Positions 3,327 to 6,373 of a stretch of DNA of 6,373 nucleotides are shown here, one piece after another; the first letter of the stretch is position 1; each line of letters starts with the position of its first letter. The DNA is from a virus. Lineage: Duplodnaviria; Heunggongvirae; Uroviricota; Caudoviricetes. Location of the stretch: positions 1 through 6,373 of the IMG/VR virus record IMGVR_UViG_2619619132_000003; one strand, written 5' to 3'. The notes under the pieces were generated by a model, which worked only from the letters and a program-made list of their open reading frames with translations, ran no database searches and was not told where the DNA came from. A program made the translations under genes and the position numbers.

Positions 3327-3487
3327 TTCTTGCCACTCCGCCACATCGCATTCAGATATTTGTTTTGATTCACTGAAGGAAAAGAATTTCTCTTAAGCAA
3401 TTCCTCTCTCGATGGCATTGGCTTTACGCGTTGGCGAATAATCATTTCTGCCGGAAGAATGCCGGGATTGTATGCAAGTCCTCTCAT
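3323..3487 (-). CDS. Hypothetical small basic protein (54 aa)
   Basis: The track ORF 3323..3640 starts with TTG and overlaps the upstream gene extensively. The internal ATG at 3487-3485 is preceded by GAGGAA with about 7 nt spacing, and the upstream stop (3500-3498) lies inside that Shine-Dalgarno. The ATG at 3505 is an alternative but has no Shine-Dalgarno. Confidence 0.4.
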
Positions 3488-3497
3488 GGTAAATTCC

Positions 3498-3794
3498 TCA
3501 GTCATTACTGATAGCGCCATAGCGTGAGCGGTAATTACGCAGGCGCGGGTCGATATATTCAGGGAAGTGGGTATATGTGGCTTTGCGGAATGGTCGGATT
3601 GATGTCTGGTAAATTCGCTCGCGTTCTTCTTTCTCTGCAAGCCATATACAGTGGCGAAATTCCTTTTCCTCTTTCGTTTCCTGCGGTAGCGACATTATCC
3701 GATCGTAGTTTTTTCTGAATTTATCCAGCACCTCCGATACGGAATTGCCGGAACAGCGGCGCGCGTCATCCGCACCATACAGAGGCGCTGGCAT
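3498..3794 (-). CDS. Hypothetical protein (98 aa), basic and aromatic-rich, immediately downstream of erf-ssb
   Basis: ATG at 3794-3792 preceded by AAGGA with about 8 nt spacing. Size and position are reminiscent of P22 abc2 (anti-RecBCD), but I do not recognise the sequence, so this is positional inference only. Confidence 0.55.
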
Positions 3795-3817
3795 AATGGA
3801 ATCCTTATTTTGCTAAT

Positions 3818-4201
3818 CTAGAAGGGAATTGAATCGTCGTATTCAGGATGATTTTGATGATTGCTACTTTGTTGCTGTTGGCTGTTTCCTGAAGTTGCAA
3901 ATCCAATCTTTGCATTCAGTAATTCAAGAGTGATTGATTGACCATTTTGCCCCTGATAAACATCAACCATGATGTTTTCTCCGGTAATTTCTACAATGCC
4001 ACCTTCAACAAGAACACTACGGTAGTAATCCGCTTGCGCTCCCGGCTTGGCAAATACAACGGCGCTGTAGTTTGTCCATTCTTTCTTTTTTGTCTGGCGA
4101 TCGTAATACTGAACGCCAGCACGGATGTTGAATCCGATATTTTCCCCGGCCTGAAACTCTCTTGCGGGCTTGTTTAGTCTTACAGTAATCGAATGTGCCA
4201 T
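3818..4201 (-). CDS. ssb: Single-stranded DNA-binding protein, short phage type (127 aa)
   Basis: ATG at 4201-4199 overlaps the Erf stop by 1 nt (TAATG), with AGGAG upstream. The core WTNYSAVVFAK...YYRSVLVEGGIVEITGENI parallels the E. coli SSB OB-fold segment WHRVVLFGKLAE...YLRKGSQVYIEGQL. A Gln-rich linker leads to the acidic tail YDDSIPF, compared with DDDIPF in E. coli SSB. Confidence 0.8.
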   Translation of the reverse strand: MAHSITVRLNKPAREFQAGENIGFNIRAGVQYYDRQTKKKEWTNYSAVVFAKPGAQADYYRSVLVEGGIVEITGENIMVDVYQGQNGQSITLELLNAKIGFATSGNSQQQQSSNHQNHPEYDDSIPF

Positions 4202-4806
4202 TAAGCAGCAGCTCCTTCTAATTCGTCTCGTCTGATGTTGTAAACGTCCTGCGCTTTGTGCTGCTCAGGTGTGCCTTCGAGCATCTTCCACGCTTTGGCG
4301 AACGCCTGTTTAAGCTCTTCTACGGTGTTTTTCTGCATTGCTGCGTCAGTGAATGCTTTTAGAACCTGTTCAGGTGTAGGTGATGGTTTTGATTGCTTTG
4401 CTGCTGCGTTCTGCTGATGTTTATGCTCGTCTGTATCTGCATCTTTCGCATCATCAATGCCGAACAAACCATTGAGGCAATACTTGCGTGCATAAGAGCT
4501 TGTAGCTCCCGTAACTTGTGCAGAATCCATTCCTTTCTTGCTTTCTTCCTCTCGTGCAAGAGCGGTTGCCGTATGGCTGTTTTCGCCATCGGTAATAGTT
4601 GCCGTGGCTTTCACGTAATACCGATCACCAATCAACACAACTTCATCGCTGATTGATAAAAACAGACCATTCAGTAACGGCTTAACGCCTTCAAGAATAT
4701 CTTCGCAGCTTCTGTATTTATATTTACCGAATGAGTTGTACTGATTCTTTGGCGCGTTCAGATTCTCCTGAATAGCTGCCAGTCTTGCGTAAAATTCTTT
4801 GCTCAT
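4201..4806 (-). CDS. erf: Erf-family single-strand annealing (recombination) protein (201 aa)
   Basis: The track ORF begins with TTG at 4836; the first ATG is at 4806-4804 and gives MSKEFYARLAAIQENLNAPKNQYNSFGKYKYRSCEDILEGVKPLL. Size, the kil-proximal position, coupling to ssb and my recollection of the P22 Erf N-terminus support the call; it was not verified by search. Confidence 0.6.
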   Translation of the reverse strand: MSKEFYARLAAIQENLNAPKNQYNSFGKYKYRSCEDILEGVKPLLNGLFLSISDEVVLIGDRYYVKATATITDGENSHTATALAREEESKKGMDSAQVTGATSSYARKYCLNGLFGIDDAKDADTDEHKHQQNAAAKQSKPSPTPEQVLKAFTDAAMQKNTVEELKQAFAKAWKMLEGTPEQHKAQDVYNIRRDELEGAAA

Positions 4807-4895
4807 ATGATTGTTCTCAGAATGGACACGGCCCAAGGAAATAACGCTGATTTAATACTTCGACTCGGGACAAATTAAGGCATACCCGCATTCCT

Positions 4896-5066
4896 TCACG
4901 ATCTCCATTCTGGCGATACATTAACGCCTGCTGCGTGTACATGCGTCTCTGTAACTTGCTCTCCTTCACTGTGGTTGCAAGTGACATGAATATCTCCTTC
5001 GTTACCGATTAATTCTTTCATCTGACGAATGAATTCTTCGTCTGACCAGTTATCTGTAAAACTCAT
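4896..5066 (-). CDS. Hypothetical small protein (56 aa) in the position of P22 arf
   Basis: The track ORF 4896..5081 starts with GTG. The in-frame ATG at 5066-5064 forms an ATGA overlap with the kil stop (5065-5063). Product MSFTDNWSDEEFIRQMKELIGNEGDIHVTCNHSEGEQVTETHVHAAGVNVSPEWRS. No sequence recognition. Confidence 0.4.
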   Translation of the reverse strand: MSFTDNWSDEEFIRQMKELIGNEGDIHVTCNHSEGEQVTETHVHAAGVNVSPEWRS

Positions 5067-5215
5067 TTCCTGCGATACCACGGAAGGTTGATAGCTGATT
5101 TCATCGCTTTATTTGCTTCAAGCCACATTTTTGAATCACCAATAAATCTGGCTATTACTGCTTTGTTCTGTGCAGCACGAAGCATCTGGTGATTGATGGC
5201 TATTTCATTGCGCAT
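5063..5215 (-). CDS. kil: Kil-like host cell-division inhibitor (50 aa)
   Basis: Hand-translated; not in the ORF track. ATG at 5215-5213 preceded by GAGG with about 7 nt spacing. Product MRNEIAINHQMLRAAQNKAVIARFIGDSKMWLEANKAMKSAIQLPWYRRK. The segment IARFIGDSKMW resembles lambda Kil (IATFIGDEKMF, as remembered). Overlaps the 3' end of cIII by 16 nt, as kil does in lambda. Confidence 0.6.
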   Translation of the reverse strand: MRNEIAINHQMLRAAQNKAVIARFIGDSKMWLEANKAMKSAINLPWYRRK

Positions 5216-5331
5216 AATAAGACCTCAACTCTTTTCCATCCGTCACGTAATTTACGGGTGATTCGTTCAAGTAAAGATTCATTTAATTGGAAGGCACCCA
5301 TGCGAGCGCCTCCCGCGATTGCGTAAATCAT
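5200..5331 (-). CDS. cIII: CIII-like protein (FtsH protease inhibitor, 43 aa)
   Basis: Hand-translated; not in the ORF track. ATG at 5331-5329 preceded by AAGGA with about 8 nt spacing. Product MIYAIAGGARMGAFQLNESLLERITRKLRDGWKRSEVLLCAMK. The core ESLLERITRKLRDGWKR and the N-terminal M-YAIAG match lambda CIII (MQYAIAG...ESLLERITRKLRDGWKR) as I remember it. Confidence 0.8.
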   Translation of the reverse strand: MIYAIAGGARMGAFQLNESLLERITRKLRDGWKRVEVLLCAMK

Positions 5332-5355
5332 GGGTGGTTCCTTATGTTGGTTTTA

Positions 5356-6231
5356 TTAGTAGGTTATTTTTGTTGCGAATACTTCGCCTTTTACGATGGC
5401 TGTTATGATATTTTTAGCAACATCTTCTGATGCACCAACCTTGATAAGGTCAGCAAGTATTTTGTTATTTACTTCTTTCCGGTGAGCTTTATCCTTTGCT
5501 CTACGCTCTTCTTCGTCCTTGATTCTTTTTTCTTCTGCTATTCTGGCTTGCTCTTTTGCTTCAGCTTCGCGCCGGATTCGTTCAGCCTCCTCCTGTGCTT
5601 TTCGGCGTTCTGCTTCAATTGCCGCCTGCTTTTCTCTTTCAGCTCGTTCTGCTGCCTCTTTTGCTTCGCGCTGTGCTCGTTGCTCGGCTTCAATGCGTTC
5701 ACGCTCTGCACGTTCCGCTGCGGCCTTAGCTTCTGCTTCTCGCCTTGCTGCTGCTTCAATTTCGGCTTTTGCCTTTGCTTCGGCTTCTGCTCTGGCTTTC
5801 TCTTCAGCTTCTCTTTTTAAGCGTTCTTCATGCTCTCGCTTTTCCTGCTCCGCTTTGAGTCTTGCCTCTTCTCTTTTGCGGTCAAATTCGCGATCCATCA
5901 AAATCGCTATTTCATGGTCAGACTCAATTTGCTTTGCGAGAGCTTCAGCTGCTGCCTTAGCTTCTTCTTCGGCTTTAATCCGTGCCTGTTCCTCCTCATA
6001 ATCAGTAAGAGGCTGGCGTGCCTTGGCTTTCAGTTCATCAAGGCGATCGCGCACTGTCTTGCGGTTGGCATCAATTAGCTTTGGAATTTCCTTCAGTTCA
6101 GCAACAAGGTCTTTGCCAAGACCATCGAGATATGTTTTCGTCTGCGCAACTTTATACGCCAGAGAAGCGATCTGAACCGCCCCGGGTTTCCTGGAGAGTG
6201 TTTTATCTGTGAACTCAGGCTGCCAGATCAT
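5356..6231 (-). CDS. E/A/K/R-rich coiled-coil protein, apparently interrupted at its 5' end by the IS; native portion 5356..6172
   Basis: The track ORF 5356..6357 starts with GTG inside the transposase coding region, in another frame. Sequence right of 6172 is IS-derived. The first in-frame ATGs (6249, 6231) lie inside the IS and have weak or no Shine-Dalgarno. The native part has no start codon of its own, so this is most likely the 3' fragment of a disrupted gene, possibly expressed as a fusion. About 170 aa are low-complexity, e.g. EAEAKAKAEIEAAARREAEAKAAAERAERERIEAEQRAQREAKEAAERAEREKQAAIEAERRKAQEEAERIRREAEAKEQARIAEEKRIKDEEERRAKDKA. Confidence 0.45.
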   Translation of the reverse strand: MIWQPEFTDKTLSRKPGAVQIASLAYKVAQTKTYLDGLGKDLVAELKEIPKLIDANRKTVRDRLDELKAKARQPLTDYEEEQARIKAEEEAKAAAEALAKQIESDHEIAILMDREFDRKREEARLKAEQEKREHEERLKREAEEKARAEAEAKAKAEIEAAARREAEAKAAAERAERERIEAEQRAQREAKEAAERAEREKQAAIEAERRKAQEEAERIRREAEAKEQARIAEEKRIKDEEERRAKDKAHRKEVNNKILADLIKVGASEDVAKNIITAIVKGEVFATKITY

Positions 6232-6373
6232 CGTTTCCGATGGAAGCATAATAAGCTTTTTCTGCTTCTGCCGGAGGAGTATGGCCCAGCCTTTCCAGCA
6301 ATCGTCGATTGTTATACCAGTCCACCCACGTGAGTGTGGCCAGTTCCACTTCTGCACGGTTTTTCCAGCTCTT
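6173..6373 (-). mobile_element. IS3-family insertion sequence (IS629/IS1203-like), terminal ~200 bp; continues beyond the window
   Basis: The plus strand from 6173 reads TGAACCGCCCCGGGTTTCCTGGAGAGTG, a TG-initiated terminal inverted repeat that I recognise as IS629-group. It sits 42 bp beyond the stop of a transposase-like reading frame on the minus strand. Confidence 0.7.
6215..6373 (-). CDS. IS3-family transposase OrfB, 3' end (partial; 5' end outside window)
   Basis: Hand-translated minus-strand frame open to the window edge: KSWKNRAEVELATLTWVDWYNNRRLLERLGHTPPAEAEKAYYASIGNDDLAA, stop at 6217-6215. WYNNRRL...PPAE...YY is the characteristic C-terminus of the IS3-family integrase-core (rve) domain. 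It is absent from the ORF track because no start lies in the window. Confidence 0.75.
   Translation of the reverse strand, partial: KSWKNRAEVELATLTWVDWYNNRRLLERLGHTPPAEAEKAYYASIGNDDLAA

Follow-up and report, generated by a model that had tools for sequence, protein, structure and literature searches.

An IS629 end within a gene 33-type accessory gene upstream of cIII in a P22-like prophage of Escherichia coli

What has interrupted the gene upstream of cIII in this prophage, and what does the interruption mean for the genes that lie downstream of it? The window, which here means the whole stretch of 6,373 nucleotides that was analysed, is identical, as the reverse complement, to the whole of contig JHDL01000007.1 in an E. 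coli draft genome (GCA_000601335.1), and it ends 201 nt into a copy of the insertion sequence IS629. The initial annotation, made from the sequence alone, had proposed that an IS629-like element ending at 6173 cuts cIII and its neighbours off from their promoter, PL, leaving the prophage either defective for early-left expression or dependent on transcription from the IS.

The features at the IS end are the following.

6173-6373, minus strand: right-hand 201 nt of IS629 (element positions 1110-1310), 100% identical to annotated IS629 in LC567824.1 and in many Stx phages
6173-6197, no strand: right terminal inverted repeat of IS629, TGAACCGCCCCGGGTTTCCTGGAGA, matching the left end, TGAACCGCCCCGGGAATCCTGGAGA, at 23 of 25 positions
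6215-6373, minus strand: C-terminal 52 codons of OrfB plus stop, cut by the contig end (from the ORF list and translation; under OrfB of LC567824.1)
6170-6172, no strand: ATC, candidate 3-bp target-site duplication (from the sequence; the other IS end is outside the contig)

The 201-nt segment opens with TGAACCGCCCCGGG. In 172 phage records at least 80% of its length is matched, in many of them at 100% identity. The Stx2a phage Stx2_499 (LC567824.1) has a 1310-bp minus-strand element, with a CCAG target duplication, that is annotated as 'insertion sequence: IS3 family IS629'; the match starts at the first base of this element and takes in the 3' end of its 'IS629 transposase OrfB'. Position 6173 is thus the terminal base of IS629. 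All 201 nt are identical to this annotated IS3-family element, so the assignment to an IS629-like element is borne out, for a window that contains only the last 15% of it. As expected of an IS3-family end, the terminal repeats start with TG and the element ends exactly at the repeat. Both the terminal repeat and the C-terminus of the transposase had been said to end at 6173; this is correct for the IS end but not for OrfB, whose stop codon is at 6215-6217, 42 nt inside IS629.

The 52 OrfB residues, which are a fragment only, match rve_3 (E=3.5e-4) and rve_2 weakly and below the Pfam cut-offs, while the IS on a second contig with the same junction, JHDL01000095.1, encodes both orfA (HTH_Tnp_1) and orfB (rve, rve_3). 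When the 52-aa fragment was looked up, the only matches were IS629 copies in unrelated contexts. Like the early-left genes, the transposase genes read along the minus strand. IS629 is among the commonest ISs in EHEC-type E. coli, and the copy described here shares with the element (synonyms or iso-forms IS1203v and IS3411) its terminal repeat and OrfB C-terminus, as well as the prophage location of most copies; in O157, 62% of IS629 sites are in prophages (PMC3271280).

The sequence on the other side of the junction belongs to a gene that is intact in many phages.

5356-6172, minus strand: 3' 817 nt (nt 153-969 of a 969-nt gene) of a homologue of Sf6 gene 33 and N7 ORF34, with 99.6% identity to N7 and 98.9% to Sf6

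Intact 969-nt copies are found in Sf6 (gene 33), N7 (ORF34, with 3 mismatches in the 817 nt), mEp213, mEp043, HK544, CUS-3 and many other phages. The alignments to these copies all end exactly at 6172 and the 5' 152 nt are missing. The proposed interruption at 6172/6173 therefore holds, and no single intact homologous gene continues across 6173. Because its first 152 nt are absent, the truncated homologue is a pseudogene. The full-length N7 protein is a charged coiled-coil protein that matches phrog_1376 (function unknown; E=9e-110), and a Pfam scan of the interrupted protein found no family. Several different ISs were found in the 5' region of gene 33 across strains, and the gene is dispensable and repeatedly hit by ISs, by an IS21-family element in CP121157.1 and by IS629 in strain UTME-12. 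The homologue is carried by 530 of 5,426 complete E. coli genomes (about 10%); 496 of these 530 have at least 80% of it in one piece, and the idea that it is a marked IS hot spot was rejected for this reason.

The native part of the gene was said to have no start codon of its own. This is essentially right, as the native ATG and 50 codons are gone; an in-frame GTG (6054) and TTG/ATG (5901/5898) are present in the native part, with no recognisable Shine-Dalgarno sequences. The long minus-strand frame (5356-6357) runs open from the native part into IS629, which offers two further starts.

5356-6249 (or from a start at 6231), minus strand: chimeric ORF, with 26 IS residues and 297 aa from the IS ATG at 6249, or 20 IS residues and 291 aa from the ATG at 6231

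Both the 291- and the 297-aa fusion ORFs have been called as genes in public assemblies, the 291-aa version on JHDL01000007.1 itself. Given that the chimeric ORF overlaps the end of orfB in another frame, and that neither IS-borne ATG is preceded by a good Shine-Dalgarno sequence, it is probably an annotation artefact and not a protein that is made. In UTME-12, PGAP labels the equivalent chimera, which likewise starts at an IS-borne ATG, a 'cell envelope biogenesis protein TolA'. This label, which is widespread among homologues of the phage protein, appears to stem from the Glu/Ala/Lys/Arg-rich composition of the coiled coil, and since no Pfam family is found, the resemblance is compositional only. 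The 291-297-aa 'TolA' or 'hypothetical' ORF, here as in UTME-12, is an IS629/prophage-gene chimera that merits a pseudogene flag.

Downstream of the interrupted gene, the minus strand carries a series of early genes.

5200-5331, minus strand: cIII (phrog_550, E=1.6e-20)
5063-5215, minus strand: kil (phrog_2055, E=1.2e-35)
4201-4836, minus strand: erf, Erf-type single-strand annealing protein (phrog_155, E=5.7e-58)
3818-4201, minus strand: SSB-like short protein ending in DDSIPF (phrog_44, E=2.1e-27; translation)
3498-3794, minus strand: abc2, anti-RecBCD protein (phrog_656, E=2.3e-56)

The co-directional order of cIII, kil, erf, ssb and the anti-RecBCD gene is that of Sf6 and N7. Judged by gene content and order, the minus-strand block is the early-left arm of a P22-like or lambdoid phage. 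The PHROG matches agree with the initial placing of cIII-kil-erf-ssb downstream of the interrupted gene, and the IS does lie between this block and wherever PL would be. The SSB-like protein (127 aa) matches only the C-terminal half of the phrog_44 profile and keeps the SSB-type acidic tip DDSIPF; its RefSeq counterpart is labelled 'hypothetical protein'.

A junction at the end of a draft contig might owe its existence to the assembly. The IS629/gene 33 junction is identical in three contigs of GCA_000601335.1 (JHDL01000007.1, JHDL01000020.1 and JHDL01000095.1) and is also present in the sister assemblies GCA_000601155.1 and GCA_000601175.1, and for this reason it is not a one-off assembly artefact; it is real, and common to a small lineage. 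All three contigs are identical over a segment of 2,842 nt that starts at IS position 1110 and reaches into abc2 (window positions 3532-6373). On JHDL01000095.1 the IS is complete (1310 bp, with orfA and orfB), and the shared sequence continues for 2,641 bp after it. Beyond the shared 2,842 nt, the two long contigs, JHDL01000007.1 and JHDL01000020.1, diverge as mosaic relatives; on the latter (61 kb), the same junction leads into another, related left arm, which runs as far as an integrase beside ybhC.

The points at which the contigs begin are also informative. JHDL01000095.1 begins exactly at the left terminus of the IS, while JHDL01000007.1 and JHDL01000020.1 begin 16 nt past position 1094, where IS copies differ. 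Starts of this kind are typical of assembly graphs that break where repeats begin or end, and the contig break was caused by the multicopy IS. Compared with an O157-type IS629 reference, the full copy on JHDL01000095.1 (1-1310) has 26 differences, all before position 1095, whereas the sister assemblies, which contain the last 367-388 nt of the IS, show no difference from the reference there. The copy on JHDL01000095.1 may belong to another IS629 subtype, or the assembly path may have mixed several IS copies. For the identical junction in two contig arms there are likewise two accounts: either two resident prophages share the module by recombination, or a collapsed repeat node was duplicated by the assembler.

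What distinguishes this copy from IS629 copies elsewhere is its site, nt 152/153 of the gene 33 homologue, a site found in none of 5,426 complete E. coli genomes and in none of 50,697 phage records. The exact right junction had no single-piece match in either set, and no match in one-genome-per-species contigs. The same prophage was not found among complete genomes when these were queried with the window or a sister contig; the best coverage was 75-79%, from mosaic relatives.

Related events at the same gene are found in three other E. coli strains. In UTME-12 (NZ_CP157095.1; extracted locus 3457-5517), an independent IS629 (99.7% identical) has its junction at nt 218/219. The element, its orientation, the gene and the reading phase are the same as in the window, and so is the ORF that starts at an IS-borne ATG, but the junction is 66 nt further into the gene. 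On the far side of the UTME-12 element there is unrelated prophage DNA (ClpP, Arc, Ant and a partial tailspike) and there is no target duplication, which makes this a deletion or rearrangement. In PK5074 (NZ_CP072802.1; extracted locus 4555-5864), the gene 33 homologue is intact and has an IS629-like copy (98.2% identical) 130 nt upstream of it. This copy, too, lacks a target duplication; it adjoins Arc and a partial tailspike gene, and an IS1 lies close by. The locus is another truncated P22-like prophage remnant. In CP121157.1 (extracted locus 5001-7928), the istA and istB genes of an IS21-family element are located in the 5' part of the gene 33 homologue, and the order is N, ral, a 49-aa 5' fragment, istA, istB, the 3' part, cIII and kil, then Rad52-SSB-abc2. 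As in the window, an IS occupies the 5' part of the gene, between the positions of N/ral and cIII/kil. In contrast to the window, the IS is of another family and both halves of the gene are visible, in a simple insertion within an otherwise intact early-left arm.

The best overall explanation, with a probability of roughly 85%, is that IS629 sits in a gene 33-type gene as a selectively near-neutral hit on a dispensable prophage gene, and that expression of the downstream block is conditional on whether PL and N still lie upstream. The element (IS3 family, 1310 bp) abuts nt 152/153 of the accessory gene in the same orientation as the operon. In the lysogen, PL would be repressed and the cIII-kil-erf-ssb-abc2 block silent with or without the IS. 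After induction, if PL and N are still upstream, N-modified polymerase should pass IS629 as it passes a terminator. In Sf6, the intact gene 33 is immediately preceded by an annotated terminator, tL2A, and nutL, N and PL come before that terminator; because of this position of tL2A, transcription of the gene 33 block already needs a terminator-resistant, N-modified polymerase.

Polar IS insertions in lambda operons are classically relieved by N, and it is by analogy with this genetics that N-dependent read-through of IS629 should be expected. In both situations the IS is inside an N-antiterminated early operon, but in the present one the contig ends inside the IS, before any N or PL. The downstream genes are all accessory in lambda and P22 genetics, and lytic growth would not be lost through this insertion alone. 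The initial choice between a defective and an IS-driven prophage is thus incomplete, in that it leaves out PL transcripts that, antiterminated by N, read through the IS. It also leaves out the risk of a deletion, to which the elements without target duplication in UTME-12 and PK5074 draw attention. If the IS marks such a deletion, the block would get at most weak read-through from the transposase transcript; this is possible because no terminator-like site was found on the minus strand between the OrfB stop (6215) and the junction (6173).

What lies beyond the left end of the IS can be pictured in two ways. There is about an even chance that IS629 transposed simply into an otherwise intact prophage, in which case the left end of the IS would be directly followed by the 5' 152 nt of the gene and a duplicate of 3-4 bp (GAT or GATC on the coding strand), and then by the genes that normally lie upstream, N, nutL and PL. 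IS3-family elements transpose in this way by default, IS629 makes duplications of 3-4 bp, and the IS21-family element in the same gene of CP121157.1 shows just such a clean layout. Against it, the contig ends inside the IS and leaves the left flank outside, and JHDL01000095.1 breaks off precisely at the left terminus of the IS, a hint that there is more than one left flank. The left junction predicted for a simple insertion (...GGGCAGAAAGGAGAT(C)/TGAACCGCCCCGGGAATCC...) was not found as a DNA pattern in genome_contigs. The predicted 5' fragments of 52 and 67 aa had no exact or homology match, a result that carries almost no weight given that control look-ups of the fusion ORFs also failed.

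It is also quite possible that the IS is the border of a rearrangement. An adjacent deletion or inversion mediated by IS629, for example one promoted by the IS-excision enhancer (IEE), would have removed or displaced N, PL and the 5' part of the gene, perhaps along with much of the prophage, and the early-left block would be an orphan. The IS here may then mark a deletion, by analogy with the complete genomes: in UTME-12 an IS629 in the same gene has unrelated DNA beyond it, and in PK5074 an IS629-like copy near the gene borders Arc and a partial tailspike gene, in both cases without a duplication. Furthermore, although IS629 duplicates 3-4 bp of its target, matching duplications were present at only 21 of 47 O157 sites (PMC3271280), and IEE-dependent deletions that leave IS629 intact have been documented (PMC9330008). 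However, nothing direct comes from this strain, and the analogues are independent events in unrelated strains.

The presence of two prophage left arms with the same junction in one genome invites a more adaptive account. If it is not an effect of the assembly graph, the IS-disrupted early-left module would have been copied between resident prophages by recombination and, together with the independent IS hits elsewhere, this could be a sign of selection, as prophages become domesticated, for arms in which kil and the recombination genes are no longer coupled to PL. Such a scenario is unlikely.

A last alternative takes up the initial suggestion of an outward promoter at the IS end. The right end of IS629 would provide an outward or hybrid promoter, and possibly the ATG at 6231 or 6249, so that a truncated coiled-coil protein and cIII-kil-erf-ssb are expressed constitutively in the lysogen. 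The orientation of IS629 sends its own transcription into the operon, no terminator-like site on the minus strand separates the OrfB stop from the junction, and IS-borne ATGs are in frame both here and at the independent UTME-12 junction, although a shared reading frame is a 1-in-3 coincidence. An outward promoter has been reported for IS3, a relative of IS629 (PMC8860574); a literature search found no such report for IS629. A consensus scan, a crude method that weak or hybrid promoters would escape, found no sigma-70-like site with at least 9 of 12 matches in the terminal 201 nt, across the junction or in the full IS629 copy of the same assembly, and so does not support the suggestion. By eye, the best -10-like hexamer is TATAAA, 17 nt past the junction, which pairs only with GGTTCA (2/6) as a -35. 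With no Shine-Dalgarno sequence before the IS-borne ATGs and with the established toxicity that constitutive kil expression would bring, IS-driven expression is very unlikely.

The IS629 end in this prophage gene is a real and ordinary event of an already known kind, and the finding matters little beyond annotation; the absence of the exact site from the genomes searched is a trivial novelty. It is well documented that IS629 insertions and adjacent deletions in prophages diversify strains of EHEC-type E. coli, and for this reason the junction site could at most mark the lineage of the three assemblies in which it occurs. The two prophage arms with an identical junction in one assembly, whether they result from inter-prophage recombination or from an assembly-graph effect, are the only mildly interesting loose end.

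A separate observation concerns the 5' end of gene 33 in other strains. In three database fragments the gene 33 sequence is cut short, after residues 40, 32 and 29, and gives way to a common foreign tail, VTNGAIV[L/I]HTQRLKSDPGGNLLS; one contig with this tail that was examined ends at that point (extracted locus 5001-5192). The shared tail suggests, from these protein sequences, repeated insertions of one further mobile element at different 5' points of the gene.
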